A stretch of DNA of 45,722 nt from Ignavibacteria bacterium (GCA_041302875.1 JBFYQI010000002.1:1-45722), one strand, 5' to 3'. Positions 5,748 through 40,422 are shown, counted from the stretch's first letter. The notes: a model not told the origin generated them from the letters alone. Numbers and translations: made by a program.

Positions 5748-7589
5748 TCAATTTGGTGTGTAGACAAGTCCGGTAAGCTGTGCATTCCCGATATTCGGAC
5801 CAGAGAAATATTGGAGCACGATCCCTGTCGGCGTCATCCGAAATACATGGTCGAAGTTGCCCGTGCTATTCGCGATCCAGAAATTGCTTCCGTCCCACGT
5901 GAGCCCGGTCGCAAATCGGTTGGATGTTGTTCCGCCCGGAGGCGTCGGCGTCGCGAACACGCCTGCCCACGTTGCGTTGGCGGGATTGTATGCGAACACA
6001 CTGTCGAGGGATGTGTCGTTGCAGTAGAGAGTTCCCGCGACGATCGCAATTCCACGCGGCTCGGCTCCCGGCGTGTTGACAGAATCCAGGATGGCTCCGG
6101 TCGTCGGATTCAGTTTGTAGATTCTTGCACTCCCGCTTCCGCTCACCGCCAGCCAGAGCGATCCGGAATCCCAAACGATGCCGCGCAGGGTTCCTGCAGT
6201 CGGCGGCGTGGAGAGCACGTTGAGCGCTGTGAGGGTTCCGGTGGTGTCTAGCTTGTACAATCGCTTGTCCGTTCCCGATGCGCAGAGCCAGAGATTCGTT
6301 CCGTCGAATGCGATGCCCTGCGGGCTTCCGGAGGACACACTCGTCGTCGGCCACGATTTGACGAGCAACGTATCCGCCGCACGTATCTTGTGGATCACAT
6401 ACCCGCCGCTCTGCTGGTCGGCAAGATACAGATGTCCGGCGAGCGGCGGCACCGGTGTCACCGCGAACGCCGTATCCGCGATAAGCACACGCCCATCGCC
6501 GTTGGTCAGGGTGACATTCCGTTTCGCGTATTCGGCATCGCTGGCGACGCTGATGTCGCAGCGCAATTGACCTGCGGTCAAGAACTGAGTCGCGATCGTC
6601 GAGATCCCCGCTCCGAAATCGACAGCAAGGGAGGGGCCGGGACGGAATCCTGTGCCGTACATGTCCACTTGAACATTGACGCCGCGCATCGCCGAATTCG
6701 GGACGATCGCCGTGAGGGTCAAGGGGATGGCCGTTCGCACATCCTGTGATGTCCAAGCGATCGGCCCCGGCTGACCGAACGGAAGATCCAGACGCTGTTC
6801 TTCTCTGCCGTTGTAGGAAAGCTTGTGCAAATGGTCTGCTGTGTTGCTGCTGTTCACTACCCAGAAATTCTTGCCATCGAACGTAATGCCGACCGGATAG
6901 ATGTAGGAAGTTCCCCGCGGAGGGATCGGCGCGGCGAACGCAGTATCGAATTGCGAGCGTTCAGTCCGGAATTTGTAGATTCGGTTCGTCGTGACATCTG
7001 TATAATAGAGTCCGACCTCTGCGCCGCGACCGTACGCATCGCCATTGGGTCCGACGTATGTCAGACCGCGCGGTTCTGGAGACGGGAGCACGAACTGGGC
7101 CAGGATCGAACCGTCTGCAGGATTGAGCTTGTACAGCGTCGGCGGCGTTTGGTAGGTGGACGATCCGCTGTTCAGGCTCCACAGACTCGAACCATCCCAT
7201 GCGAGGTCGCGCGTCGTCCCCTGCCTGCTCGGAGGAGCATCGAACACGTTGACCGCAACGATCGAATCTCCTCCCGCGTCCAGTTGATAGATCCGGTCAG
7301 CGTTGCCCGCGACGGAGACCCAGAGGTACGTCCCATCGAACGCGATCCCTTGCAGGCTCTCATCGTTTGTGATCGGCCGGGGATCCCAACGACGCAGCTC
7401 GCGCATCTGCGCGTCGAACTGGATGATGGAAACGGAGGCACGGTCGAGGAAGTAGAAGTATCCTCCCGCGGGCTGGAAGAGGTTTCCGGGTCCTTCGTCC
7501 AACTCCAGCACATTACAAGAGATGAGCATGGCCGCAACGGATGCCGCGACGATGAGCCCAACAAAGGAAAGTCGATGGATGGGTTTCAT
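5748..7589 (-). CDS. lipoprotein with two beta-propeller-like repeat regions separated by an IPT/TIG-like Ig domain
   Basis: Lipobox AAMLISC. A blade motif recurs: GIAFDGTYLWVS, DLAWDGSSLWSL, GITFDGKNFWVV, GIAFDGTNLWLC, GIVWDSGSLWLA, GLTWDGSNFWIA. The central stretch LTLTAIVPNSAMRGVNVQVDMYGTGF...VTLTNGDG looks IPT/TIG-like. Confidence 0.65.
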   Translation of the reverse strand: MKPIHRLSFVGLIVAASVAAMLISCNVLELDEGPGNLFQPAGGYFYFLDRASVSIIQFDAQMRELRRWDPRPITNDESLQGIAFDGTYLWVSVAGNADRIYQLDAGGDSIVAVNVFDAPPSRQGTTRDLAWDGSSLWSLNSGSSTYQTPPTLYKLNPADGSILAQFVLPSPEPRGLTYVGPNGDAYGRGAEVGLYYTDVTTNRIYKFRTERSQFDTAFAAPIPPRGTSYIYPVGITFDGKNFWVVNSSNTADHLHKLSYNGREEQRLDLPFGQPGPIAWTSQDVRTAIPLTLTAIVPNSAMRGVNVQVDMYGTGFRPGPSLAVDFGAGISTIATQFLTAGQLRCDISVASDAEYAKRNVTLTNGDGRVLIADTAFAVTPVPPLAGHLYLADQQSGGYVIHKIRAADTLLVKSWPTTSVSSGSPQGIAFDGTNLWLCASGTDKRLYKLDTTGTLTALNVLSTPPTAGTLRGIVWDSGSLWLAVSGSGSARIYKLNPTTGAILDSVNTPGAEPRGIAIVAGTLYCNDTSLDSVFAYNPANATWAGVFATPTPPGGTTSNRFATGLTWDGSNFWIANSTGNFDHVFRMTPTGIVLQYFSGPNIGNAQLTGLVYTPN

Positions 7590-15115: not shown

Positions 15116-18109
15116 CTATTTGATGATCGCAAACTTGCCCGTGCTCTTCTCGCCGTCCGGTGTCTCGACCACAAAAATGTACAGACCGAAAGCGACTTCC
15201 ACACCCGACTGATTCGTCAGGTTCCAATCCTCGACGCCCGAGAGATTCGTGTGCACGATGCGTTGGACAAGTTCACCGCGGACGGTGTAGATCGAGATCG
15301 TGCATTCGGGGGGCAGGAATGTGAACTGGACCTTCCGCACGTTCTGGATCTGTTCCCACGCCGCGGCACCGATATACGGATTCGGAACGACGCGGATCTT
15401 GCTCATCAACTGCGAGGCCGAGATGCCGGGCGTTGTCAGAGAATACGGAGCCGTTTGGACGTAGAACGTATCCCTCGTCGTCACCGCGCTGTACGTCTGA
15501 ATCGTGAAATACTGACCGATCGTCGGCAGTCGGGCACCGAGGGACGAGTCACTCGCGACCGTGTCAATCTTGATCGCGTAGGGGACCTTCGCGACGGTAT
15601 AGATCCCAAGGGTATCTCCGACCCCAGAGGGATTTCTGTAGGGGATATTGACGATGCGGATCGGTTCGCCGAGATTGAGCGCGCCGTTGTGATTCGCATC
15701 TTCCATCATGGCCGTCACTTGTTGCGGCACCATTCCATTGGTGACATTCCAGACCTCGAACGGCACCTTTACCTTCGCCAGCAGCGCCTGGTTGCTCGCC
15801 GCAATAGTGTCCACGTACGATCCCTGATCGGTGAATCGGAATTCATAATCGCCGCCGCGGGAATTCGTGTCGGCAGCGGTGTAGTTCGTCCGAAGCGAGA
15901 CGAACCATCGATTGACCTGGTTCTTGTTCGAGGAGCTGTTGACCGTCTTGCCAAGTTCATCCTTGATCGTCTTGATCCCGCCGATCTGCGCATCCGTTTC
16001 GATCCGGAGCCACAGGCCATCGATGACCGTCAATTCGTCCGATTTCAATGGCGCCTTCGCAAGAAGCGAATCTGCCGAGGAGTAGACCCGGAAGGTATCC
16101 GCAATGGCCTTATTGAAGGCCACCTTGTACATGTTCGTGCCGATCTTTGCCGGGTCGGCGATGGAAACCTTCACGTTCGCCTTGCCCACGGTTGCAGACT
16201 TGGTCACCGTGTAGTTCGGACGCTGGTATCCGGCCGGGTCCGTCCGCGGCGTGAGGTCGACAAAGTTCGGATCGGTCGAGGTCGTTCCCTTGGAGGATTC
16301 GTTAGACTCCAGCGAACCCTGGACGCCCATGTCGTATGACGTGATCGTGTACGAATACTGCACCCCGTTGGACACGGTCGAATCGACCCACATATGACGC
16401 AGTCCGGTGTTCGAACCGAGGAAGTTGAAGCTGTTCTGCGGGTCCGGGCCCTGAATGTCGTTGATCTTGTCAAACTGTGCGATGGGGACGTATCCGACCA
16501 AGCGACCCTGTCCATCGTACATCTCCCTCCCCCACGTCGCACCTCCATCCTGGCTCCGGTAGATCTTGTATCCTTCGAAGTCCAGTTGTTTCGTCATCAC
16601 ATCCCGGACCTTCTCTGGCGCGTCAGACCAATACAGCGTGTTCCTTCTATCGCCGGCCACACCGACCAGTTTGGGCGAAGGCGGGACGGAGGGACCGTTG
16701 TATTCCGCGAGGAAAAGTGTCTGTGCGGAGGCGACATTCCTCTTGAACTGATCAAGGGTCTGCGCCGCGGTGTACGCGATACAGGCACGCACGGATTCGC
16801 CGGGGTTCAACGTGAACAGACTGGTCGACATCAGAGCGCCGAACTGCGTGTAATCCCATCGCGACGGGACGAGGTATGTTGAATCGAAGACATCAAAATG
16901 CACGTTGCTTCCGCCATGGAAGTAATTGGAGGCGGCCGGTCGGCCAGCGATACTGAATGCCGGGTCATTGGGATTGCTGATCATCACCGGATAGATATTC
17001 CGGTTCGTCTTCTTCGGCATGTACGTCGTGTTCATGCGGAAGAAGTGCCCGTCTGTGACGCCCATATCCTTCGGCGTCCCGAGGATCACGCTGCCAAAGT
17101 AGCCGCTGTTGATGCCGCGGATCGGATCCGTCGCGCCATTCCAATCCCAGTTGGCTAACGCGTTGTCATAGCCGTTCGGATTGATCCCCGAATTGAATGT
17201 GATGTACCCCTCTTCGTTTGCGTCACCGAATCGGAAGTCGAGCAAGTATCCCCAAGTGCATGAATCCAGCACGACATTGCTCGTATTCGTGATGATGAAA
17301 TCATAGAAGTGAAGATCCTGTCCGAATCGTCTTCCCCAGCTATATGCCTGCATCTGCACCTGGACCCCCATCGGAACATCAGGCGGTTGCGCGTTGCGAT
17401 CGCTGAAGACCGTATAGACCTCCCGGTCCGCGGCGAACTCCCCGGGGATCTGCTGGCGGAATGTCGCTGAGAGCGTATCCATGTCGATGCGGAAGCGCCC
17501 CGGCCAGAATCGCCACAGATTCTTGGATTCATCGTACCATCCAGCACGTTGGGTGATGACGGCCTGATCCGCGGTTGAAAGCGAATCCCATGGACCAACA
17601 GGCCCGGATTGCCACGCATTGGATGCGTCGAAGTATCCTGCCGGCCATGTCAGGGGAATATCACTATGGGCCATGCGCGGACTTCCATCGGGTGCTTTGA
17701 TCTCCGACGGCTGGTCGTTCGCACAGTACTGCCCCACGCCCCCCGCCACACCCTGCCAGTCCTCATTGTAACGATTACTGTAGCTATCGATGACGTTTCC
17801 CTTCGAGCCGAACACGACTCCGCCTCGATTGACGGCATTGACATCACCCGTGTTGGTCGCGAGCCCCTTGCTCTTGGGCCAGCGGAAGACATACATCGCC
17901 GATCGTTGATAGCTGTCGGTGATCAGCCCCTGGTTCCCGCACACGTTGATCAGTTCCCCCTTGTCAAGAAGTCCCCAGGTATCCTCTACGCTCCGGCTCA
18001 CTTTCTTCAGCGCGGTCGTATCAGGGGACCCTTCCTCCTGAGCGCGGGCAACCGAGACGAGCGACAGGAGCATCGCCGCCAGGATCATTGTCGAACAAGT
18101 CTTGGACAT
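15116..18109 (-). CDS. large secreted protein (997 aa) with T9SS-type C-terminal sorting domain, function unknown
   Basis: Track ORF trimmed to ATG at 18109 (MSKTCSTMILAAMLLSLVSVARAQ, a signal peptide), with GGAGAG upstream. The C-terminus VVPNPYIG...ISIYTVRGELVQRIVH...GLYIFVVETPDGEKSTGKFAIIK resembles a Por secretion tail. Confidence 0.7.
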   Translation of the reverse strand: MSKTCSTMILAAMLLSLVSVARAQEEGSPDTTALKKVSRSVEDTWGLLDKGELINVCGNQGLITDSYQRSAMYVFRWPKSKGLATNTGDVNAVNRGGVVFGSKGNVIDSYSNRYNEDWQGVAGGVGQYCANDQPSEIKAPDGSPRMAHSDIPLTWPAGYFDASNAWQSGPVGPWDSLSTADQAVITQRAGWYDESKNLWRFWPGRFRIDMDTLSATFRQQIPGEFAADREVYTVFSDRNAQPPDVPMGVQVQMQAYSWGRRFGQDLHFYDFIITNTSNVVLDSCTWGYLLDFRFGDANEEGYITFNSGINPNGYDNALANWDWNGATDPIRGINSGYFGSVILGTPKDMGVTDGHFFRMNTTYMPKKTNRNIYPVMISNPNDPAFSIAGRPAASNYFHGGSNVHFDVFDSTYLVPSRWDYTQFGALMSTSLFTLNPGESVRACIAYTAAQTLDQFKRNVASAQTLFLAEYNGPSVPPSPKLVGVAGDRRNTLYWSDAPEKVRDVMTKQLDFEGYKIYRSQDGGATWGREMYDGQGRLVGYVPIAQFDKINDIQGPDPQNSFNFLGSNTGLRHMWVDSTVSNGVQYSYTITSYDMGVQGSLESNESSKGTTSTDPNFVDLTPRTDPAGYQRPNYTVTKSATVGKANVKVSIADPAKIGTNMYKVAFNKAIADTFRVYSSADSLLAKAPLKSDELTVIDGLWLRIETDAQIGGIKTIKDELGKTVNSSSNKNQVNRWFVSLRTNYTAADTNSRGGDYEFRFTDQGSYVDTIAASNQALLAKVKVPFEVWNVTNGMVPQQVTAMMEDANHNGALNLGEPIRIVNIPYRNPSGVGDTLGIYTVAKVPYAIKIDTVASDSSLGARLPTIGQYFTIQTYSAVTTRDTFYVQTAPYSLTTPGISASQLMSKIRVVPNPYIGAAAWEQIQNVRKVQFTFLPPECTISIYTVRGELVQRIVHTNLSGVEDWNLTNQSGVEVAFGLYIFVVETPDGEKSTGKFAIIK

Positions 18110-18134
18110 ACTGCTCTCCTCAGAGGTCTGATAA

Positions 18135-20831
18135 TTAGAGATCGATTCGGACACCGACTTGGATCCGTCGGCGAACGTCGACATTCGCAGGATTCCGTTG
18201 ACGGTCTGGCGTGTTCTGCGTGATCGGACCCGCATCCCAGGGATCTCCCGTCGCAGTCCAGACCAACTGCGTGTTGACGGCATCAAGGAGATTGGTGATC
18301 TTCACGAATGCGGACAGCTTCACACCGGCGACCGGGATCACGCGCTCCACGCGCATGTCGATCTGGGCGGTGCCCGCCTTGCGCCCCGAGTTCTTCTCGA
18401 CGACCAGTTGATCACCGGACTCGAACGTGTTGGGTGTGTAGGGCAAGCCGCTCGCCACCTGGACAACGAAGTTCGCGTTGAAGTACTCAAAGGGATAGAT
18501 GCCGAAGACCTCCGGCCCGAACTGTCGCGGGAACGCGATGTTCAGCAATCCTGAGAGCACATGCCGACGGTCGAAGTCAAGATAGAAGACGCGCTTCGGA
18601 CGAAGGACGGCATTCGATCCGCGATAGTCGAGATAGCCCTCCGCCGGATCCGACTCATTCCCTTTCGCGATCGAGTAGGTGTAGGTCAGGCTTCCGCTGA
18701 AGTATCCGCTCATCTTCTTGCGGAGGGCGACATCGACGCCGTTCACTTTTCCGTAGTTCGAATTGTCATAGATCGTGTAGGCGTACGGGTACACGGCGTG
18801 ATAGGTACTGCCGACGAGATTCGTGATGTCCTTGAAATACGCTCCGAGGTCGATCGAATAGTCGTCGCTGAGTTGCTGCTTCACGCCGAACTCGAACGCG
18901 ACGGTCCGTTGCGGTTCGATCCCCGGGTTGCCAACGAGCGCGGCGTTCACGGAGGGATCGCGCAGTTTGAACATCTCAAGATAATCTGCGCGCTGGAAGA
19001 AGTGGCCGTAGGAACTGTAGAAGACCGTCCGCTCGGTGATGGGGAATGCGATCCCAAGCCGCGGACTGATCTGCAAGGAGGGATCGGTCGGCAATTCGTT
19101 CGTGACGACCCACAACTTGGTCGTTTCGTCCTTGTAGCCGCCCGGATCGGTTACGGTCGGCCAGCGCGTATCCTTCACATCTACGTAGTCCAACCGGATG
19201 CCCGCATTGATGAGGAAGGAATTGAACTCCAGCTTGTCCTGGATATACGCCGCAACTTCAAAAGGATAGCGGCGGAAGGATTCATACGCCCAGAATCCTC
19301 CGGCCCACGGTTCCTGAAACGAGGTCCGCTTGATGTCATGGAACGTGATCTCCGCACCGACCTTCACAAGGTTGTACCGGTCGAGCTGCTGCATCAGATC
19401 AACCTTCGTGATGAAATAGCTGAGGTTGTTCGCAACGTAATCTCCCAGATCCCCCCCCTGGGTGAATTGATTGCCGGAGCTCTTCACATAGTTCGATTCC
19501 AGGAGGAGCCCCTCCGGGGAGAAGACCGCGTACTTGCCCGGCGTGTACAGACGGAAATCCCGGGTGTTATAAGTAAGATTGAGGGTCAGCGCCGTTTCGG
19601 TGTTTGGGAAGTAATGGACGGCGATATTGTCTCGCACAGTTTCATCCGACCGATGCGGATAGCCGTCCGGGACATATTTCCATATGTGCGAGTACAATTT
19701 ATATGCCCGCCAGAATCGGCGGTCGGCGATGCTGAATTTCCACGACCCGAATGTGTAGGAGAATCGGGCATTCGTCTCGCGCTCTTTGTTAAAGCCCCAC
19801 GGCATTTGGCTGAGCGCATTCTCGATGCGACCGGATACGAAGAACTTCAGATCAGGAACGATCGGCATCGGACCACTCAGGTTCATCGACAGCTGTCCGA
19901 GAAAATCGATGTCGGGGAACAGGTCCCGCGTCTCATCCATGGATTGCGGCTCGTAGGCCGATGGAATATCGAGGATGACGTTCCCTTTGTCGTCGATCCG
20001 CGGCCTGCGGACGCCATTGGCATCGATGCCCATATAGTCATTCGCGAGGGCATCGGCCATGTGGTACGGCGATTCATTCAGCTGGGCGGACTCGAACTCC
20101 ACCCGGCCGTTGTAGCTTGCGCCGCCTTCTTTTGTCACGATGTTCACGACGCCGGAAAGCGCTTGGCCGTACTCCGCGCTGAATCCACCGGTGAGCACCT
20201 GGAGTTCCTGGATCGCATATTTGTCCAATTGCGACCCCATGGTGCCGCTCAGCGGATCGCGCATCGGAACCCCGTCGATCATGTACACCACTTCGCCGCT
20301 CCGGCCTCCGCGCGCGTGCAACTCTCCGCTTGCGTCGGTCACGAAGCCGGCCTGCAGTCCGACGACCTGTTGAAAGCTCACGACCGGAAGGTTGGAGAAT
20401 GTCTCAGCCGAAACGATGGACATCTTCGACGTTTCATCCTTGTTGATCATCGGGCGTTCCGCCGTGACAACCACTTCCTGCCCGAGCGCCACCGTCGACT
20501 CGGTCATGTCGAGTTGGACGTTCGTGGTCAGGTCCGCCCGCACGATCACCTCGGTCACGAGCTGCGTCGCGTATCCCAGCAGTGTCGCGCGCACGCGGTA
20601 TGTTCCCGGAGGGACATTGATAATGACGATGCGACCTTCGACATCGGTCGCTCCCCCGATCGACGTCCCCTCGAGCATAACGTTCACCATCGCGAGCGGT
20701 TCGCCGGTCTTCTTGTCGACGGCTTTCCCGACGATCTTGCCGGTCGTTCCGCCGAACGCTGCCGTGACGATCAGCAACGCCAGTGCCGCGACGATCCAGC
20801 GAGAGAAGAGAATGCGAAGTGGGTGTCTCAT
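18135..20831 (-). CDS. TonB-dependent receptor with N-terminal carboxypeptidase-regulatory-like domain
   Basis: Trimmed to ATG at 20831 (MRHPLRILFSRWIVAALALLIVTAAFG). CarboxypepD_reg-like region: GKIVGKAVDKKTGEPLAMVNVMLEGTSIGGATDVEGRIVIINVPPGTYRVRATLLGY. Plug-like region: ...LPVVSFQQVVGLQAGFV...HARGGRSGEVVYMIDGVPMRD. A long barrel follows. Confidence 0.85.
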   Translation of the reverse strand: MRHPLRILFSRWIVAALALLIVTAAFGGTTGKIVGKAVDKKTGEPLAMVNVMLEGTSIGGATDVEGRIVIINVPPGTYRVRATLLGYATQLVTEVIVRADLTTNVQLDMTESTVALGQEVVVTAERPMINKDETSKMSIVSAETFSNLPVVSFQQVVGLQAGFVTDASGELHARGGRSGEVVYMIDGVPMRDPLSGTMGSQLDKYAIQELQVLTGGFSAEYGQALSGVVNIVTKEGGASYNGRVEFESAQLNESPYHMADALANDYMGIDANGVRRPRIDDKGNVILDIPSAYEPQSMDETRDLFPDIDFLGQLSMNLSGPMPIVPDLKFFVSGRIENALSQMPWGFNKERETNARFSYTFGSWKFSIADRRFWRAYKLYSHIWKYVPDGYPHRSDETVRDNIAVHYFPNTETALTLNLTYNTRDFRLYTPGKYAVFSPEGLLLESNYVKSSGNQFTQGGDLGDYVANNLSYFITKVDLMQQLDRYNLVKVGAEITFHDIKRTSFQEPWAGGFWAYESFRRYPFEVAAYIQDKLEFNSFLINAGIRLDYVDVKDTRWPTVTDPGGYKDETTKLWVVTNELPTDPSLQISPRLGIAFPITERTVFYSSYGHFFQRADYLEMFKLRDPSVNAALVGNPGIEPQRTVAFEFGVKQQLSDDYSIDLGAYFKDITNLVGSTYHAVYPYAYTIYDNSNYGKVNGVDVALRKKMSGYFSGSLTYTYSIAKGNESDPAEGYLDYRGSNAVLRPKRVFYLDFDRRHVLSGLLNIAFPRQFGPEVFGIYPFEYFNANFVVQVASGLPYTPNTFESGDQLVVEKNSGRKAGTAQIDMRVERVIPVAGVKLSAFVKITNLLDAVNTQLVWTATGDPWDAGPITQNTPDRQRNPANVDVRRRIQVGVRIDL

Positions 20832-23359: not shown

Positions 23360-25057
23360 CTAGAGACGCTGGGTTAATGTGAGATAAGCGGTCCGTTCCG
23401 TAAAGTGCCCGTAGAGCATCGACGGCGATGAGTACCGGGTCCACAACACCGCGGCATTCACAGAAAAACTCTGAGTCACCGACCAGGTCGACGACAGCCG
23501 GAATCGAAGCGAGTTCGCCTGCTGATTGTCGAACGACCACATGACGGAGGCGCGTGATGTCAATGCGTTCGCCAACGTCCGGTGCTGCGCCGTCAACATC
23601 GTGGACCAGTTCGTGGTCTTGCGGTCGATGGAAGCGCTCATGTTGACCGACGGGAGCAACAGGATGTCTTCGGTTGCTGCGATGGTCCCACCGACTCCGA
23701 CCGCGTGGTTGACCGCGCGAACATCCGGTCTCACAGGGAGGTCATACAGCGAACCCGAATAGGTGTAGTCGAAATTCACGGATCGGAGCGTCGACTGCCG
23801 GCTGAAGGAGTACTGCTGGCTCGTCCCGATCACTACCGTGGAAAACCCGTACCGCGCGGAATCGCCGGGGGCGTTGTTGTCCATCGACGAGTAGACGACG
23901 CGGAACGACGTCCCCCATTCACCGACCGGCCGCAGGGTGACCATCGCCGTGGCGGTCTGCCGCACCGTCGTGTTCCTCTTCTGTCCCAACAGATTGTCGT
24001 TCTGACGGGTCCAGCTGACCATGATCGTCCCTGTGGGGATGCGGACCATCGGGGAGATGAGGAATTCCTGCTGATCGTTCGTCAGCCAGCCCACACCGAG
24101 CGATGTATATCCCGGCGCAATGTACTTGTACCCGGTTCGCAGACTCACCGGCGAGAAGCTGAGCATCATGTCGCTGGCGACCATGAAGTCTGCGTTCGAG
24201 CTGAGGCGCGGCTTGAAGATCCCCCGCACGAATTCCGGCACGCTCCCCGTGGTGTCCTCCTCAAGCCGCATGTCGCGCGTGTAGAGGCTTCCGTTCGCCT
24301 CGACATTCCATGTGACGGCACGGTCGAACAGGACCGTCCGCGTTCGGATGCCGGCAACAAGGTTCTCCTGCGGCGTCGTCGCATACGGATTCTGGTATGT
24401 CATATCGAGGGAATCGTTCTCGAACGCGGACACGGAAGGATTCGGATCAGCGAGTGAGGCAGGATCATCGCGCACGCGAAGTACCTGCACATCAAAGAAT
24501 GACGCATATTCGTCCCCGACGCCGATGCTTGCTCCCATCACATACCGTTTGTAGGAGCCGCTTTCCGACCCGCCGTATACGGCCCGGCGTGCTTGTCCTC
24601 CCAACAGACTGAACCGAAGAAGTCCCGGATTGATGATCACGCCGCCGCCGCGCAACGGGATCCCGCTGAGTGTGTACGGAGAGATCTCATCGCTGAAATC
24701 GCCGATATGCGCCCGTCCCCATCGCCACGAGGGATGGAGGCCGATCTGATTGATGTCCTGGCGCGCAGAGTTCCCTTCGGTCGACAAGAGGAGATCCGCG
24801 CTGAGTGTGACCGCATCGAAGACCGTGAGCGTGGGACGAAAGAACAACCTCGCCGTCGACGGATCACGCCGCCGGGGGGCTCCGGTGATCCCGTTCACCT
24901 CTCCATACGCCGTCAATTCGCCCGAGAATCTGAATGCCTCATCAAGAAATCCCGATGCACGACCGCTGGAGTCGGGTGCTTGGGCGATCGCCCGTTCGTG
25001 TGCCCACGCGAGCAAGAAGATGCACGTGCAGACGAGGAATCGTCCGTTGGTAGTCAT
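23360..25057 (-). CDS. outer-membrane beta-barrel protein (565 aa), family unknown
   Basis: Signal peptide MTTNGRFLVCTCIFLLAWAHERAIAQ. The whole protein has an alternating beta-strand pattern rich in Y/R/S/T. Confidence 0.55.
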   Translation of the reverse strand: MTTNGRFLVCTCIFLLAWAHERAIAQAPDSSGRASGFLDEAFRFSGELTAYGEVNGITGAPRRRDPSTARLFFRPTLTVFDAVTLSADLLLSTEGNSARQDINQIGLHPSWRWGRAHIGDFSDEISPYTLSGIPLRGGGVIINPGLLRFSLLGGQARRAVYGGSESGSYKRYVMGASIGVGDEYASFFDVQVLRVRDDPASLADPNPSVSAFENDSLDMTYQNPYATTPQENLVAGIRTRTVLFDRAVTWNVEANGSLYTRDMRLEEDTTGSVPEFVRGIFKPRLSSNADFMVASDMMLSFSPVSLRTGYKYIAPGYTSLGVGWLTNDQQEFLISPMVRIPTGTIMVSWTRQNDNLLGQKRNTTVRQTATAMVTLRPVGEWGTSFRVVYSSMDNNAPGDSARYGFSTVVIGTSQQYSFSRQSTLRSVNFDYTYSGSLYDLPVRPDVRAVNHAVGVGGTIAATEDILLLPSVNMSASIDRKTTNWSTMLTAQHRTLANALTSRASVMWSFDNQQANSLRFRLSSTWSVTQSFSVNAAVLWTRYSSPSMLYGHFTERTAYLTLTQRL

Positions 25058-34641: not shown

Positions 34642-34749
34642 CCGGGGGTGATTCCGGGGACTTATCCGGGGACTTATCCGGGGTTTTATCCGGGGACTTA
34701 TCCGGGGACTTATCCGGGGCTTTATCCGGGGTTTTATCCGGGAACAATC
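34642..34749 (+). repeat. 12-nt tandem repeat array 2 (9 units, same unit and orientation as array 1)
   Basis: Units: ccgggggtgatt / ccggggacttat x2 / ccggggttttat / ccggggacttat x2 / ccggggctttat / ccggggttttat / ccgggaacaatc. The terminal unit (ccgggaacaatc) resembles the terminal unit of array 1 (ccgggacaatca). Confidence 0.9.
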
Positions 34750-34779
34750 CAGCGATCCTGGTAGCTCCTTCTGTCCACT

Positions 34780-36084
34780 CTACGCCACCACCGCGGATTC
34801 TTCCTCGATCTCTCGCGTCAGGGCCATGGCGGCGATGGTGCCGTCCGAAACCGCCGTGGTGATCTGCCGATATTGCTTGCTTGCCACATCCCCCACTGCG
34901 AACACGTTCTTGATGCTCGTGTGGAACTGTCGGTCCGTAACGATGTATCCCCAGCTGTCCAGTTGGAACTTGTCCTTGAACTCCTCAAGGTTCGGCTTCA
35001 TGCCGGCAAAGACGAACACGCCGTCGCAGTCGATCGTCACAAGCTCCCTCGTCTTCAGATTCTCCGCGATCACTTTCCGCACGCCCTGTCCTTCCTTCAC
35101 GAACTCGCGCGGTTCGTGCTCGAACATGAACGAGATCTTCGGGTTCGCGAACGCCTTCTCCTGCGCCGTCTTGTTCGCCTGCAGCTTGTCGAATTGATGC
35201 ACGATGGTGACGCGCTCGGCAAACTTCGTGATGAACAACGATTCCTCGATGGCCGAATTCCCGCCCCCGATCACGACGACGTGCTTTCCTTCGTAGTACT
35301 TGGCATCGCACGTCGCGCAGTACGAAACGCCCTGTCCCTTGTATTCGCGTTCCCCTTTCACTCCGATGACGCGCGGGGATGAACCGGTCGCCAAAATGAT
35401 CTTCTTCGCCTTGATCGTTTCGACTCCGTCGATCACCACCTCTCCTGCTGCGCAGTTTGTTCGCGTCACATCGACTGCCACCCGGAATTCTGCTCCTGCC
35501 GCCTTCGTCTGCTCGGACATGTGATGCATCAACATATAACCTGAGATGGGCTCTGAGAATCCGGGGTAGTTGCTGACGAGATGTGTCGTTTTCACTTGTC
35601 CGCCCGGGAGATCACGGTCGACCACGATGGTCTTTAACTTCGCCTGGGCGGTGTAGATCGCGGCGGCCAATCCAGCAGGACCGCCGCCGAGGACCAGGAC
35701 ATCGCATTCGGTCTGCGTTTGGGGGATGGAATCTCGCAACTGTGTCGCACGGTTCGGCGACAACATCGTTTCGAGATTCTCGACGATCTCGGCCCGCTTG
35801 ATGCCACCGCTTAACCGCTTCCCCGTTTCCTTGCCGTCTTTGAAGAAGATGAGCGTCGGCGAGGAAGATACTCCCAGTTTCTGAGCCAGCTCCTTGTTCC
35901 CCTGGCGAAAGATCTTCACGAATTTCACATCCTCGCCGTAGATCTCGCTCAACGGCTCGAACTTCGCCGCGAGCGCTTCGCACGGCGGGCACTCCGTGGA
36001 ATAAAAATCGAGGACGACCGACCCGTTCGTGTGCACAACGGATTCATATTCTGTCGCATTGACCTCTTGTATGTGTGTATGCAT
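34780..36084 (-). CDS. thioredoxin domain fused to a thioredoxin-disulfide reductase-like flavoprotein
   Basis: N-terminal Trx fold with the redox motif ECPPC (DFYSTECPPCEALAAKF). FAD motif VLVLGGGPAGLAAAIYTA. TrxR redox centre CATCDA. Second dinucleotide motif VVVIGGGNSAIEE. The start is ATG at 36084 (or GTG at 36087), 6 nt after the rSAM stop. Confidence 0.85.
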   Translation of the reverse strand: MHTHIQEVNATEYESVVHTNGSVVLDFYSTECPPCEALAAKFEPLSEIYGEDVKFVKIFRQGNKELAQKLGVSSSPTLIFFKDGKETGKRLSGGIKRAEIVENLETMLSPNRATQLRDSIPQTQTECDVLVLGGGPAGLAAAIYTAQAKLKTIVVDRDLPGGQVKTTHLVSNYPGFSEPISGYMLMHHMSEQTKAAGAEFRVAVDVTRTNCAAGEVVIDGVETIKAKKIILATGSSPRVIGVKGEREYKGQGVSYCATCDAKYYEGKHVVVIGGGNSAIEESLFITKFAERVTIVHQFDKLQANKTAQEKAFANPKISFMFEHEPREFVKEGQGVRKVIAENLKTRELVTIDCDGVFVFAGMKPNLEEFKDKFQLDSWGYIVTDRQFHTSIKNVFAVGDVASKQYRQITTAVSDGTIAAMALTREIEEESAVVA

Positions 36085-36090
36085 CACTTG

Positions 36091-37404
36091 CTACAACTCC
36101 TCTTTGAAATACGTTGAAATACCCATGGATACCAGTTCGTTGATCGGGCGGCAGTCGGTGCCATGAAGGTCGCCCATGGTGTTGAATGCAACCGAGGCAC
36201 ACCCTCCACCGCACGCGAGCCGGAGATTGCACTCCGCGCACCCGGAGATCGTTGTGACGTCCCGTTCCTCCCATCGTGCGATGAGTTCTTCGTTCTTCTG
36301 CACCGTCGGGTAGAACGTGCCCAATGATTCTGCCGCCTTACCCACGGTTGCCGTGCAGGAATAGATGCGTCCCGTGTAGTCGAATGCCCATTCGGTCTTC
36401 GTTCCGGGACAGGAGTCATACAAGGGACTCGGCAGCTCGCCGTTCTCGAAAAGGAACTTAGCGATCGAAAACGCGGGCTTGTGGAACTGGAGGATCTCCG
36501 GATGCTGCTGGACGAGACCATAGATCTCCTGAAACATCTCGACGCGGGAAAGGAGTTTGCTCCGGTCGGTCTGACATGTATGCAGTTCGTAGTTGCGTCC
36601 CAGCTGGGTCTTGAATTTCGGGTGTGACGTCCACCCGCGCTGGATCGCGAACGCGGCAAGCGCCGGCAATTCGCTGATGTTCTCACGGTCGATCACCACG
36701 CGCAGGTTGATCGCGATGTCGAGCGCGAGCGCTTGGTCGATGCCGTGCACGATCCGGTCGAATGTCACGCCGCCCCCCTTCAAGGGCCGACGAAGGTCAT
36801 GGACACGTGCAAGCCCGTCGAGGGTGACCTGGATCTCGCGGATCCGGTGACGCGACAACATTTCCACATAGTCCGAAAGCAGATAGCCGTTCGTCACGAT
36901 CGCCGTTTCAAGACCCGCATGGTGTGCCTTTTCGAGGAAGTACTGCACGACATCCCGATATGCCGGTCCGTCGAGCAGCGGTTCACCGCCGAACAAGGTC
37001 AGGTACTTCCGACGACCCGCGAACGTCTCATGGACGTACCGAAAGAAGCGGTCAACGAGTTCCCGCGTTGGGAGTTGATGCTCGTTGGAATATCCCTCCT
37101 GATAGCAGTAGCTGCAACCGAAGTTGCACGCATACCAGGGGACAAAGAAGACCTGGATCTCGTCGCTGTCGCGCTCGTCGAGGAAGTCCAGATACCGCTG
37201 ACGAAACAGCCGTTCGTCCTGTTCGGGATCGACGAGATACCCCTTCGCAGTATACTCATCGACATCCGTGTACTGCTCTTCACGGATCTCCCGGGCCTTC
37301 TCTGCGGTCAGGATATCCGCATTGCCTCGAAGCAGGTTCAGCAGGATGAACTTGTCCGAACCGGCGATCGGCGTGAGGATGTTATGCTTGGAGAACGTCA
37401 TCAT
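36091..37404 (-). CDS. radical SAM / SPASM-domain peptide-maturase-like enzyme (437 aa)
   Basis: Trimmed to ATGATG at 37404. CX3CX2C is at residues 93-100 (YACNFGCSYC), after a ~85-aa N-terminal extension (FILLNLLRGNADILTAEKAREI...) of the kind that forms a peptide-recognition domain in RiPP maturases. There is a complete SPASM signature: CPGTKTEWAFDYTGRIYSC (CX12GX4C) and CAECNLRLACGGGC (CX2CX5CX3C). Confidence 0.85.
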   Translation of the reverse strand: MMTFSKHNILTPIAGSDKFILLNLLRGNADILTAEKAREIREEQYTDVDEYTAKGYLVDPEQDERLFRQRYLDFLDERDSDEIQVFFVPWYACNFGCSYCYQEGYSNEHQLPTRELVDRFFRYVHETFAGRRKYLTLFGGEPLLDGPAYRDVVQYFLEKAHHAGLETAIVTNGYLLSDYVEMLSRHRIREIQVTLDGLARVHDLRRPLKGGGVTFDRIVHGIDQALALDIAINLRVVIDRENISELPALAAFAIQRGWTSHPKFKTQLGRNYELHTCQTDRSKLLSRVEMFQEIYGLVQQHPEILQFHKPAFSIAKFLFENGELPSPLYDSCPGTKTEWAFDYTGRIYSCTATVGKAAESLGTFYPTVQKNEELIARWEERDVTTISGCAECNLRLACGGGCASVAFNTMGDLHGTDCRPINELVSMGISTYFKEEL

Positions 37405-37442
37405 CTGGAAGAGAGCAAGTCCCGCACAATTCGGGGTTGGGA

Positions 37443-37538
37443 TTAGTCGTGGCAGCCTGCGACGTTCTTCGACGTCTTGGCGCAGCACTGGGCCACGGCG
37501 GTTTCGGTTTTCGTGTGCTTCTTGATGAGAGACTTCAT
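37443..37538 (-). CDS. unannotated 31-aa Cys-containing small ORF, candidate precursor peptide (MKSLIKKHTKTETAVAQCCAKTSKNVAGCHD)
   Basis: Too short for the ORF track; found by hand translation of the 164-nt gap between the methyltransferase and rSAM genes. It has the strongest SD in the window (AAAGGAGGT, 5-nt spacer, ATG). It has a Lys-rich N-terminal half and a C-terminal half with three Cys. The stop is 38 nt before the rSAM start. Confidence 0.6.
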   Translation of the reverse strand: MKSLIKKHTKTETAVAQCCAKTSKNVAGCHD

Positions 37539-37568
37539 GAATACCTCCTTTCTCACTGCACGGCTCCG

Positions 37569-38240
37569 TCAGGACCCGCAAGTGCACGAAGACTTTGTTG
37601 CTGATACGGTGAAGCTGACAACAGCGATCTTCCCCTTTTCGTACGGCCTGCTCTCTTCCATGATGGTGATATTCTTGAATCCCGCTTCGGTGAGGATCGT
37701 CAGATACTCTCCTTTCGTGATCGCTCCCGCCCAGCACTCGGCGACGGCGACCGGATCATTCGCGTACTCTTCTGGAACCGGTTCGAGCGAATAGATGTCG
37801 CTCACGACAAACCGTCCTCCCTTCCTGAGAATGCGAAAGATCTGTCTCCAGACCGCGCGTTTGTTCTTGGCATGATTGATCGTGCAATTCGAGATAACCA
37901 AGTTCGCCACGCTGTCGGCGATATTGATCTGTTCCAGTTCCGATTGGACAATCGAGACGTTGGTGTAGCCAAACTTCTCGACCTGCTTCTTCGCCTTGGC
38001 GATCATTCCGTCTGCGATATCCACGCCATAGACGTAGCCGTTCTCGCCCACTGCCTCCCGCAAACGTATCACGTCCGTGCCTTTGCCGCAGCCGAGGTCC
38101 ACACAAACCTCGCCGTTCTGAGGCTGGCTTAGGTCCAGCGCTCCGCCACATGAAAGACAGCATTCCTGTTCGGCAAGCTGGCTGTAGCGTTTCTCGATCT
38201 CTATAATATTATTGCTCATAGCATTCCGGAGTGATTCCAT
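37569..38240 (-). CDS. class I SAM-dependent methyltransferase, ArsM (arsenite methyltransferase)-like
   Basis: Start taken at ATG 38240 (MESLRNAM); the track start at 38252 is GTG. SAM motif VCVDLGCGKGTDV. The Cys pattern is ArsM-like: N-terminal CC (AEQECCLSCGGAL), ISNCTINH and VAECWAGAI. Its C-terminus is also Cys-rich (SSCTCGS). Confidence 0.7.
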   Translation of the reverse strand: MESLRNAMSNNIIEIEKRYSQLAEQECCLSCGGALDLSQPQNGEVCVDLGCGKGTDVIRLREAVGENGYVYGVDIADGMIAKAKKQVEKFGYTNVSIVQSELEQINIADSVANLVISNCTINHAKNKRAVWRQIFRILRKGGRFVVSDIYSLEPVPEEYANDPVAVAECWAGAITKGEYLTILTEAGFKNITIMEESRPYEKGKIAVVSFTVSATKSSCTCGS

Positions 38241-38286
38241 TGTGTGATGCACAAAATATGGGAAAGATTCGTGTCATTTTGGCACG

Positions 38287-38314
38287 ACTCCCGGCTTCTT
38301 AAGCTGCCGGGAGT
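38287..38314. repeat. hairpin repeat copy A (ACTCCCGGC-ttcttaagct-GCCGGGAGT)
   Basis: 9-bp perfect GC-rich stem with a 10-nt loop. It lies between the ATP-grasp stop (38336) and the methyltransferase start (38240). It is near-identical to the copies at 42666 and 40719. Confidence 0.8.
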
Positions 38315-38335
38315 GTTGTGGAGGTGATGGCATCA

Positions 38336-39436
38336 TCATTTGGCCGAATCCGGGAGTCTAACACCCCCGGAGTTGGCCAAAGCCGCAGGTTTTCTCGCCA
38401 GCGCATACTCCACGATCATCCGGAGCGTGGCAGAAAACGACAAACCCGCCTTTTCGGCAGAATCCATGAAAGAAACTCCTTCCGTTAGGTCAGGATTAGG
38501 ATTCACCTCGAGAATGTGGACCTGCCCGCAGGGCGAGACGCGAACGTCCAGACGGGCATAGTCCCGGCAACCAGTCAGTTCGTATGCCCGAAGGCAGGCC
38601 GCTTCCACCTTCTTCTGAAGACGCTTTGAGAGAGTCGCAGGACAGTGGGAGTGAACCTTGTGGTAGTTCTCGCTGAGGGGATTCCACTTCACATCGTAGC
38701 TAATGATGCGGGGTTCCTCTGGAGGAAGCTCTGAAAAGTCGTATTCAACAATCGGCAACACCCGCGGGGATTGATTGCCTAGTATCCCCACATGTAACTC
38801 CCGGCCCTCGATGTATTCCTCCACCAAGACAGGGGACCCGAATTCCTTGAACGCGTGCTCGATACGTGCCATCAACTCCTCTAGCCCGTTGACGACCGCA
38901 TCTCGGTCCACTCCCCAACTCGCATCTTCGCGACCCGGTTTCACGATCATTGGGTAATGGAGGCCGTGCCGCCGGGGAAGAATCGGAGCCGTCAACAGCC
39001 GAAATCGCGGCGTCGGAATCCCATTGGCAAGTAGGATCTGTTTGGTGAGACCTTTCCGCTGACAGAGGGCAAGCGCAAAAGGAGTTGCCCCGGTATAGGG
39101 GATGCTCATTAGGTCAAATACTCCCGCGACCATCATCTCGAGCTTCGAATCCCCGCGGAAATGCTCGACGAGATTGAAAACGACGTCTGGCTTCTCCATC
39201 TCCAGCAGACGGAGCAACCGGGTAATATCATCCTCGAGGTTTCCCAATATCGCCTCGAATCCCTCCGATTCCAGCCCCTTCGCGAGCGCCTGATATTCGT
39301 CCAAGGCGGTCGCCACGTGGATGGGATAGGTCGGAGTGAAATCAAGGTCGTCTGGACTCACAGCCCGCATTTTCTCATACTCGTCCTCTCCTGTATGGTT
39401 GAAGAGGATGAGGACTTTGGTGGGTCGGTCGGTCAT
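38336..39436 (-). CDS. D-alanine--D-alanine ligase-like ATP-grasp enzyme (366 aa)
   Basis: Trimmed to ATG at 39436 (MTDRPTKVLILFNHTGEDEYE). Ddl-like organisation: N-terminal Rossmann-like region, then ...ALCQRKGLTKQILLANGIPTPRF...YPMIVKPGREDASWGV...VLVEEYIEGRELHVGILG...ARLDVRVSPCGQVHILEVNPNPDL. Confidence 0.8.
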   Translation of the reverse strand: MTDRPTKVLILFNHTGEDEYEKMRAVSPDDLDFTPTYPIHVATALDEYQALAKGLESEGFEAILGNLEDDITRLLRLLEMEKPDVVFNLVEHFRGDSKLEMMVAGVFDLMSIPYTGATPFALALCQRKGLTKQILLANGIPTPRFRLLTAPILPRRHGLHYPMIVKPGREDASWGVDRDAVVNGLEELMARIEHAFKEFGSPVLVEEYIEGRELHVGILGNQSPRVLPIVEYDFSELPPEEPRIISYDVKWNPLSENYHKVHSHCPATLSKRLQKKVEAACLRAYELTGCRDYARLDVRVSPCGQVHILEVNPNPDLTEGVSFMDSAEKAGLSFSATLRMIVEYALARKPAALANSGGVRLPDSAK

Positions 39437-39555
39437 GGGAGGATGCTCGTTCTGTGTCAGAAATATGTCTATTTGCCGGCACAGTGGCAAGTTCTGATTG
39501 CTATTGGACCGAAGATTGGGTAGGTTATCCGTCCAAGAAATCACATCCCACTTCG

Positions 39556-40422
39556 ATGTCATTCTATCCTCAACCCGGCGAGTGGCAGTGCGGACCCTTC
39601 GCACTCAAGCACGCACTCATCATGCACGGACTCCTTGTTGCCGAAAAGGACATTGCGCGCATCGCAGGCACGCATTGGTGGAACGGCACGAACGAGATCC
39701 AGCTCGGGAAAGCGGCACGCGCATTCAACTGCGACTTTCTGATGATCCGCAAGTATGACTCCGAACACGCACGCAAGGAGTTGAACGGATTTCTGCGGGA
39801 TCGGATCCCGACGCTCCTTTGCGTCGACGAGTGGGAGCACTGGCTCGTTGTGGTGAAGCAGGAGAAAGGGAAGTACATCCTGCTCGACAGCGAAGACCCT
39901 GCAGTGCTCACGATCGTCACGTGGCCGCAACTTCGGAATCGCTGGGCGTATCATCGGCAGGATGAATATGACAAGGACACGATCCATACGGTCTACGACC
40001 TCCATCCAGTCGTTCCGCGATTCCGAGTGAAGACCCAAGCGAACGTCTCGATCGATCGCGCGCGCTATCTCCGGCGCAAGTCAAATCGGGCACTTGCACA
40101 TTCGTGGGATGAGTATCTCGAAGACCTTCTCGCCATCTGCAAAGCACGTACGCCCCTCTCGGAAAACGTTTTTTCGCTCGGAGAGTTCTTCCGTCGCCAC
40201 GAGGAGATGATCCTGGATCAAATCGACTATTGGCACGGAAAGCTCAACCGAAGAGAAGCGTCGGTCATCCTCCGCAATATGCATCTCGTTGCCGACACCT
40301 ACGGACTCGTGATCCACCAGGAAGATGAGAAACGCGCGATCGCGGGCATCGCAACGCTGCTGACCATCTGGGCAGCAGGGAAATACGGTGCGTCCTCGAT
40401 CTATGACGGCGAACGGAAGTAG
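39556..40422 (+). CDS. stand-alone papain-fold cysteine peptidase (C39-like) with C-terminal helical domain
   Basis: Trimmed to ATG at 39556 (MSFYPQPGEWQCGPFALKHALIMHG). Candidate catalytic Cys in QCGPFAL, His in DEWEHWLVVV and Asp in ILLDSEDP. Order and spacing match C39 bacteriocin-processing domains. There is no fused ABC transporter. Confidence 0.55.
   Translation: MSFYPQPGEWQCGPFALKHALIMHGLLVAEKDIARIAGTHWWNGTNEIQLGKAARAFNCDFLMIRKYDSEHARKELNGFLRDRIPTLLCVDEWEHWLVVVKQEKGKYILLDSEDPAVLTIVTWPQLRNRWAYHRQDEYDKDTIHTVYDLHPVVPRFRVKTQANVSIDRARYLRRKSNRALAHSWDEYLEDLLAICKARTPLSENVFSLGEFFRRHEEMILDQIDYWHGKLNRREASVILRNMHLVADTYGLVIHQEDEKRAIAGIATLLTIWAAGKYGASSIYDGERK

Follow-up and report, generated by a model that had tools for sequence, protein, structure and literature searches.

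A 45,722-nucleotide (nt) stretch of DNA from an Ignavibacteria bacterium (GCA_041302875.1 JBFYQI010000002.1:1-45722; "the window" below means this whole stretch) carries at positions 34,780 to 38,240 a cassette encoding an ArsM-like methyltransferase, a 31-residue peptide with three cysteines, a radical S-adenosylmethionine (SAM) enzyme with a SPASM domain and a thioredoxin/thioredoxin-reductase fusion. Analysis of related loci showed that this is a real, widespread and tightly linked four-gene module. It combines the known layout of a radical SAM/SPASM enzyme next to its precursor peptide with an unprecedented set of partners, and we tentatively favour a role in handling or methylating a soft metalloid. 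The features are as follows.

37569-38219, minus strand: minimal ArsM-like SAM methyltransferase (MT), 216 amino acids (aa)
37544-37549, minus strand: Shine-Dalgarno (SD) sequence AGGAGG, 5 nt before the ATG of the peptide
37443-37538, minus strand: unannotated 31-aa precursor-like peptide MKSLIKKHTKTETAVAQCCAKTSKNVAGCHD, with a motif conserved in relatives
36091-37404, minus strand: predicted radical SAM/SPASM peptide maturase (rSAM), 437 aa
34780-36084 (36087 with a GTG start), minus strand: thioredoxin/thioredoxin-reductase (Trx-TrxR) fusion, 434-435 aa

Distribution and linkage of the cassette

An earlier note on the window had described four co-directional genes, and all of them were found at the place it gave, on the minus strand and in the order MT, peptide, rSAM and Trx-TrxR, with gaps of 30, 38 and 6 nt. 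An alternative ATG at 38240 would extend MT to 223 aa, which is the form present in databases. Promoter and terminator scans of the window returned no more sites than shuffled controls and were thus uninformative, so that it is the short gaps that speak for co-transcription. No riboswitch or leader RNA was indicated, as a search of positions 33500-39800 against Rfam (E ≤ 1) gave no match.

Related loci came from a scan in which each GTDB species was represented by a single genome; the 80 best-matching ones were searched by tblastn with the four window proteins. MT, rSAM and the fusion occurred together in almost every locus and the 31-aa peptide was detected too; all four genes were present in 65 of the 80 loci. 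MT, peptide and rSAM without the fusion were seen in seven loci, four of which are contig ends, as are most of the incomplete loci. The peptide motif described below was missing from six loci, namely three contigs that start inside rSAM, one outgroup of 28% identity without the cassette, one decayed locus and L036, the sole real exception. In the decayed cassette (L080:4668-8629) frameshifts have split MT, rSAM and Trx-TrxR each into several frames, and no peptide motif is left.

The order of the genes varies. In L007, L021, L044 and L070 the fusion is found upstream, while L064, L069 and L071 encode it on the opposite strand. A linkage that survives such changes argues for a functional rather than an accidental association. 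In 40 complete loci the pairwise divergences of MT, rSAM and the fusion were correlated (Pearson 0.70-0.74), a value reached in none of 500 permutations.

The 80 loci belong to Bacteroidota, Ignavibacteria, Spirochaetota (including Leptospirales and Brevinema), Myxococcota, Fibrobacterota and others, and Calditrichota and a metagenome-assembled genome (MAG) of Syntrophomonadaceae (Firmicutes) were among the protein matches; the cassette is known from at least six phyla. Spirochaeta isovalerica is a cultured carrier (rSAM WP_184742836.1). Two MAGs, labelled Myxococcales and 'Enterobacteriaceae' (L069, L071), have an identical peptide, with MT as well as the fusion on the opposite strand in both; the 'Enterobacteriaceae' label is probably a binning error.

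The three-cysteine peptide

The core of the peptide reads AQCC[A/S/T]K-x-[S/T]-x4-GCHD and is followed directly by the stop codon (in the window AQCCAK-S----GCHD-stop, with a cysteine spacing of CC-x9-C). That a hidden small cysteine-containing open reading frame (ORF) stands next to the rSAM gene had been proposed in the earlier note, together with a search of homologous rSAM neighbourhoods for a short conserved CC...C ORF, and this search bore the proposal out: the motif Q-C-C-[A/S/T]-K-x-[S/T]-x4-G-C-H-D-stop is present in 74 of the 80 loci. In these 74 cores, which all differ at the DNA level, 10 of the 16 positions (A, Q, C, C, K, G, C, H, D and the stop) are invariant, and each of them employs all its synonymous codons. 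Synonymous variation at invariant residues means that selection acts on the protein, and by this pattern the small ORF is a true gene, conserved, translated and under strong purifying selection. Taken with the frequency of the motif and of the full gene set among the loci, the synonymous variation places the arrangement far beyond chance.

The N-terminus MKSL[I/V]KK is conserved as well, and is joined to the core by a linker of variable length and composition; most peptides have a total length of 30-39 aa. To judge from these sequences, conserved N-terminus, variable linker and invariant core make up the leader/core architecture of a precursor of a peptide that is made by the ribosome and modified after translation (RiPP). 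An extra CC or CxC occurs in the leader of 16 of 75 peptides.

Translation signals are appropriate to the hosts. An SD of the AGGAG(G) type precedes 24 of 68 peptide starts, in loci from Spirochaetota, Ignavibacteria and Myxococcota. No SD was found before the peptide ORF in the Bacteroidales loci; Bacteroidales generally do without SD-led initiation. The window contains three AGGAGG-N(4-9)-ATG sites. The description of the peptide's SD as the best in the window holds insofar as it is the sole AGGAGG site in front of a conserved ORF.

The identical cassette is present on three public contigs, and on each of them gene callers left the 31-aa ORF uncalled; an exact look-up did not find its sequence in a collection of 15 billion proteins. 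A phmmer search over 1.84 billion representatives returned only stand-alone homologues of 31-41 aa and no fusions; a hydrogenase-like protein of 486 aa (P0262) that shares a 90%-identity cluster with 35-aa peptides (that of P0257) is a clustering artefact. When TGA was allowed at the cysteine positions in the motif scan of the 80 loci, no selenocysteine variants appeared. A cysteine leader peptide of the attenuator type is ruled out by the conservation at the amino-acid level, which includes residues other than cysteine, by the fixed C-terminus and by the position in the middle of the cassette.

The radical SAM/SPASM enzyme

In rSAM the CX3CX2C motif (C93/C97/C100) follows an N-terminal extension of 92 residues, and seven SPASM cysteines (C332, C350, C389, C392, C398, C402 and C418) complete the domain; both motifs had been named in the first reading of the sequence, which put the extension at ~85 aa. 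Each of these cysteines is kept throughout a set of 26 homologues, and C277 is invariant too. Pfam Radical_SAM matches the protein. The N-terminus, predicted to resemble a RiPP recognition element (RRE), gave no match to Pfam PqqD despite this prediction. In the AlphaFold2 model (predicted local distance difference test, pLDDT, 80.4) residues ~1-80 form a beta3-alpha3 unit with strands at 8-12, 19-23 and 28-32 and helices at 34-41, 48-54 and 60-78 (pLDDT 82-90), and as modelled this is an RRE-like domain, a winged helix-turn-helix of three strands and three helices.

The best fold match of rSAM was CteB (5WGG, E 1e-16), followed by SuiB, the anaerobic sulfatase-maturating enzyme (anSME) and ChlB. 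The best NCBIfam match was CefB (162.5 bits; cut-off 600), and then came TIGR04463, the geopeptide maturase, PapB and Clo7bot, all below their cut-offs. By these scores rSAM stands outside every named maturase family; the nearest curated families all act on small cysteine-rich peptides. Homologues number in the thousands, and the best 120, which are 57-72% identical, all have generic names.

An identity as anSME is ruled out. The anSME model TIGR03942 scored 66.5 bits (cut-off 349) and ranked under ten RiPP maturase families, and the peptide has C-C-A-K-x without a conserved arginine, unlike the anSME target C/S-x-P/A-x-R. NCBIfam scores and the fold match to CteB place rSAM among RiPP maturases, as had been supposed, and not among anSME or cofactor enzymes. 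Sequence and model together characterise it as a predicted RRE-bearing SPASM peptide maturase of the CteB-like, cysteine-directed kind.

The ArsM-like methyltransferase

MT contains the motifs CCLSCGG, ISNC and ECWAGA, as claimed in the earlier note, with conserved cysteines C20, C21, C24, C39, C112 and C162 and a CxC tail at the C-terminus. C24, C112 and C162 align with Cys72, Cys174 and Cys224 of CmArsM in comparison with solved structures, where the best matches were all ArsM. With a family profile of 24 orthologues the top five PDB matches were ArsM without exception (E 1e-32 to 1e-29); the methyltransferase after them stood at 4e-15, about 17 orders of magnitude worse. The As(III)-site triad is kept in all MTs adjacent to a peptide, including a deep clade at 33-47% identity. 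CCLSCGG and C39 are invariant in the main clade, and about half of the MT copies have cysteine-rich C-terminal tails. Judged by these alignments, MT is derived from ArsM and nearest to it, and its As(III)-site cysteines are under selection.

The comparison with ArsM models proposed in the earlier note gave a divided answer: ArsM is the nearest family, but the best curated match (NCBIfam NF008823, arsenite methyltransferase) scored 183.9 bits, below its cut-off of 263, and MT was far below the cut-offs of the remaining ArsM-specific models. The alignment spans CmArsM residues 68-249 of 377-383, and MT ends ~30 residues past the methyltransferase domain, without the C-terminal domain of ArsM. 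Annotation in the style of JGI and KEGG nevertheless names these short proteins 'arsenite methyltransferase'.

The CC pair at 20-21 lies outside the region aligned with ArsM and is missing in the deep clade (L072, L073 and L075), whose MT has no C39 either and retains the triad, and whose rSAM is ~35% identical. The peptides of this clade, encoded directly upstream of rSAM (at ~5818-5948 / 3225-3344), have serine or threonine at core position 5 and SCCG or SCCS in the leader. Leaders with an additional CC or CxC were also seen in 13 other loci whose MT retains the CC pair; compensation of the lost MT pair by leader cysteines is thus true in one deep clade only and is no general rule.

The thioredoxin/thioredoxin-reductase fusion

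The last gene had been described as a Trx-TrxR fusion, and it encodes a thioredoxin (residues ~1-108, CPPC) followed by a thioredoxin reductase (CATC, FAD and NAD domains), matched by Pfam Thioredoxin and Pyr_redox_2. Against TIGR01292 it scored 321.3 bits, below the cut-off of 343.45. CPPC and CATC are 100% conserved in 58 orthologous fusions and GGGNSA is conserved, while H-Q-F-D-x-x-Q/T is conserved in 56 of the 58 (residues 297-303 in the window). This motif stands at what we take to be the site of HRRxxxR, which binds the NADPH 2'-phosphate in Escherichia coli TrxR, and the replacement suggests NADH or another donor than NADPH. The fusion is the dedicated disulfide reductase of the cassette.

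Genes recurring around the cassette

Flanking ORFs of the related loci were clustered, and the 150 nearest were surveyed against Pfam. The uncharacterised, cysteine-rich DUF1847 is present in ~21 loci, between rSAM and the fusion or directly after the fusion (for instance L016:6324-6875, L023:7355-7963, L032:7306-7866, L038:2669-3217 and L067:987-1538), and is a facultative fifth component. DUF6132 was found in 13 loci and DUF302 in 12, a MarR gene lies directly upstream in six spirochaete loci, and NifX-like proteins, OsmC, rhodanese and extra thioredoxins occur as further neighbours. These accessory neighbours are cysteine-rich or metal- or redox-related proteins, for which NCBIfam yields no specific names. 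An ORF with an IS1595-type zinc ribbon lies antisense just upstream of MT in 12 Bacteroidales loci (e.g., L040:4386-4820, minus strand), possibly as a remnant of, or an aid to, mobility of the cassette.

Proposed function and alternatives

The cassette probably works inside the cell. Around the related loci no ABC exporter, peptidase or leader protease and no double-glycine leader was recurrent; these absences, together with that of a recurrent immunity gene, led us to drop a secreted bacteriocin as the leading idea. The reading that we favour, although we put it somewhat short of an even chance, is an intracellular system in which the tri-cysteine peptide, matured by rSAM, an ArsM-type methyltransferase and Trx-TrxR together handle or methylate a soft metalloid. 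In such a system rSAM would bind the MKSL[I/V]KK leader through its RRE and then modify the invariant core, likely by cysteine-directed crosslinking if its nearest characterised relatives are a guide. Most likely it would make an intramolecular crosslink at or beside a cysteine, and GCHD-COOH is a candidate site for a cysteine-to-aspartate thioether. As thiol partner or carrier, the matured peptide would offer the minimal ArsM-type enzyme a soft metalloid in trivalent form, As(III)-type or possibly Sb, Se or Te. Each oxidative methylation would leave a disulfide in the enzyme, the peptide or both, which the fusion would reduce again, NADH being a likelier donor than NADPH. In this way the cell would handle or methylate metalloids without recourse to the classical ars efflux operons.

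Several observations favour a substrate of the metalloid type. Nothing in the work of a simple peptide methyltransferase would call for an invariant ArsM triad. In ArsM the catalytic disulfide is reduced by Trx/TrxR, with one disulfide formed per turnover of oxidative methylation, whereas plain S-, N- or O-methylation consumes no reductant and the clusters of radical SAM enzymes are normally reduced by flavodoxin or ferredoxin. Since these other steps would not use Trx/TrxR, a strictly linked disulfide reductase fits an ArsM-type cycle. As(III) is bound by a vicinal cysteine pair and a third cysteine in ArsD and some ArsR proteins, a pattern that the CC...C of the peptide resembles, which we take as a lead. 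The cysteine-rich and metal- or redox-related accessory genes point the same way.

Other findings weigh against this reading. A role in detoxification would let one expect occasional linkage to ars genes, yet ArsR, Acr3, ArsB, ArsC, ArsD and ArsA were not recurrent among the 150 nearest flanking ORFs, no ars gene was found among 24 further ORFs of the window scanned against Pfam, and the regulators near the cassette are of MarR and Crp types, not ArsR. MT scores below the cut-off of every curated ArsM model and lacks the C-terminal domain, and an equivalence of its CC pair to CmArsM Cys44, the fourth N-terminal cysteine that serves the disulfide cascade, meets the difficulty that the pair is outside the aligned region. 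Thioether formation, moreover, could use up the very thiols of the peptide that metalloid binding would need. The same absence of ars genes around the loci and in the window rules out a standard ars operon, in agreement with the earlier note.

A plain new RiPP is the next reading to be weighed. Here rSAM would form thioethers of the sacti- or ranthipeptide type from the three cysteines, MT would methylate the peptide on S, N or O, Trx-TrxR would keep the precursor cysteines reduced, no metalloid would take part, and the product would probably have an intracellular role, as in SCIFF. The layout of leader and core, RRE-SPASM maturase and tailoring methyltransferase is canonical, the closest characterised relatives of rSAM (CteB, PapB, the SCIFF maturase and QhpD) form cysteine thioethers, and the missing ars genes as well as a truncated MT under the ArsM cut-offs speak for it too. 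However, the invariance of the metalloid-binding ArsM cysteines and of CC and C39 in MT is left unexplained, as is a disulfide reductase co-inherited in ~90% of complete loci; extreme invariance of the core across phyla without exporter, protease or immunity gene is also atypical of bioactive RiPPs. We regard this possibility as real, though on balance unlikely. The two alternatives that the earlier note had put forward, a crosslinked and methylated RiPP and a metalloid-carrying peptide, thus stay in the lead, with the weight moved modestly to the second. That the peptide itself carries arsenic or another metalloid, either as an As(III)-thiolate carrier for the minimal ArsM or with a C-As bond made by rSAM, is rather unlikely.

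The peptide might instead be a redox cofactor or ribosomal low-molecular-weight thiol that cycles between dithiol and disulfide, with the fusion as its reductase and MT tailoring it once, and would defend anaerobes from oxidants, electrophiles or sulfane sulfur. The invariant core with its fixed C-terminus does recall the precursors of mycofactocin and pyrroloquinoline quinone (PQQ), the reductase is tightly linked and its HQF motif suggests a specialised donor, and OsmC, rhodanese, DUF302, extra thioredoxins and the upstream MarR of the six spirochaete loci would suit such a role. Against this, the ArsM-type active site is left without a role, no partner dehydrogenase or peroxidase is consistently linked, and most loci lack the accessory genes, so that we give this explanation a low probability.

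Improbable, finally, is a peptide-bound organoarsenical, in which, by analogy, a carbon radical on the core would attack Cys-bound As(III) to give a C-As bond and the ArsM-like enzyme would methylate the arsenic. ArsS, a radical SAM enzyme, pairs with ArsM in arsenosugar synthesis, and the arsinothricin biosynthesis cluster reportedly pairs ArsM with the radical SAM enzyme ArsL; the cassette would be the third independent pairing of this sort, and both the CC...C motif of the peptide and the conserved ArsM triad fit. Yet rSAM is a SPASM maturase by its sequence and unrelated to ArsL and ArsS, whose families are not among the best 25 of its 72 NCBIfam matches, arsenic uptake or resistance genes are missing nearby, and we know of no chemical precedent for forming a C-As bond on a peptide.

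Comparison with known systems

MT shares with ArsM/AS3MT (CmArsM, PDB 4FS8) the fold, the motifs DLGxGxG, ISNC and EC-x-GGA, the equivalents of Cys72/174/224 and, in about half of the cassette MTs, a cysteine-rich C-terminal tail, and its coupling to a thioredoxin matches the need of ArsM for a reductant. Unlike ArsM, it has 216 instead of ~280-400 aa and no C-terminal domain, leaves the N-terminal part of the profile unmatched and stays under the cut-off; it is never beside ars genes and always with the tri-cysteine peptide and rSAM, and the cassette encodes its own Trx and TrxR as a fusion. ArsM with ArsS or ArsL offers a parallel in that there, too, the genes for an ArsM-type methyltransferase and for a radical SAM enzyme form a pair. 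ArsS and ArsL, however, are non-SPASM enzymes that move a SAM-derived fragment to arsenic, involve no peptide and are encoded in or near ars operons.

SCIFF and ranthipeptide systems (CteA-CteB, PapA-PapB) likewise have a small cysteine-containing precursor next to an RRE-bearing SPASM maturase, and the SCIFF peptide, too, shows strong conservation and has no exporter or protease of its own. By sequence and by fold rSAM finds its best match in CteB, yet the identity is only ~16%. The cassette departs from these systems in its core AQCCAK...GCHD with three cysteines, in its obligatory MT and Trx-TrxR and in scores that fall far short of the cut-offs of all named families. With mycofactocin (MftA/B/C) and PQQ (PqqA/D/E) it has in common a short precursor whose C-terminal core does not vary, an RRE and a SPASM radical SAM enzyme, an intracellular product and a wide, patchy distribution as a mobile module. 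In contrast to them it has no peptidase or flavoenzyme, its core is based on cysteine and not on Val-Tyr or Glu-Tyr, and the partners are an ArsM-like methyltransferase and a disulfide reductase. As(III) sites of the kind mentioned above are formed by Cys12/13/18 in ArsD and Cys95/96/102 in A. ferrooxidans ArsR; the peptide resembles them in its vicinal pair plus third cysteine, but its spacing is CC-x9-C, and it is a free 31-aa molecule without homology to ArsD or ArsR.

In NCBIfam release 20.0 the peptide has no model, and rSAM and MT reach none of those that exist. The proteins go by no other names in the sources than 'radical SAM protein', 'methyltransferase domain-containing protein', 'hypothetical protein' and, this last in JGI, 'arsenite methyltransferase'. 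In the full-text literature searched QCCAK has zero occurrences and the gene combination was not found; subscription journals are mostly outside this search, and a prior description is possible there. A paper on RiPP mining in Bacteroidales (PMC10352776) does not cover the cassette. The earlier claim that no described system has these four parts thus agrees with the literature searched.

Other features of the window

A gene of the ATP-grasp type (D-Ala-D-Ala-ligase family; 38336-39436, minus strand) lies 116 nt upstream of MT, and is adjoined by a divergent ORF (39553-40422, plus strand) with a sub-threshold match to Peptidase_C39. This pair is retained on near-identical contigs (L081) and not in the 80 related loci, and probably stands outside the cassette. 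A carrier system like LysW/LysX, which the ATP-grasp gene might suggest, is ruled out as the gene is not conserved in the 80 loci.

Directly 3' of the Trx-TrxR stop codon, at 34653-34742, a 12-bp tandem repeat, TCCGGGGACTTA, is present in 7.5 copies, and ~800 bp from it there is a degenerate array of 4.7 copies (33858-33917). The two arrays bracket an orphan ORF of 176 aa (34047-34577, minus strand) without a match in Pfam or NCBIfam. The genome resembles those of the Fibrobacterota-Chlorobiota-Bacteroidota (FCB) group in having sorting domains of the type IX secretion system (T9SS) and a TonB-dependent receptor. Three large ORFs without a Pfam domain, all on the minus strand (27238-32160, 1640 aa; 15116-18286, 1056 aa; 23360-25057, 565 aa), sit among proteins with T9SS sorting and fn3 domains and are probably uncharacterised surface proteins of the FCB group.

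Significance

The cassette represents a widespread, uncurated peptide/rSAM system whose precursor is usually missed by gene callers, and whose core is conserved in the manner of a cofactor precursor and not of an antibiotic. It is open to experiment, with small parts and at least one cultured carrier. A strictly co-inherited Trx-TrxR is unusual in a RiPP-like cassette and points to catalytic thiol/disulfide cycling, not to one-off biosynthesis.

If a metalloid is involved, the cassette would be categorically new, and if an organoarsenical is made, it would be the first that is peptide-bound. The MTs of such cassettes are probably counted in environmental surveys of arsM, given the JGI- and KEGG-style labels. 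Should they require the peptide, or act on a substrate other than free arsenite, estimates of the potential for anaerobic arsenic methylation would need revision, and if the peptide carries the metalloid, a large share of the 'arsM' genes of anoxic metagenomes would be peptide-dependent enzymes. Anaerobes carrying arsM often methylate poorly in culture, and a dependence on the peptide could bear on this behaviour.

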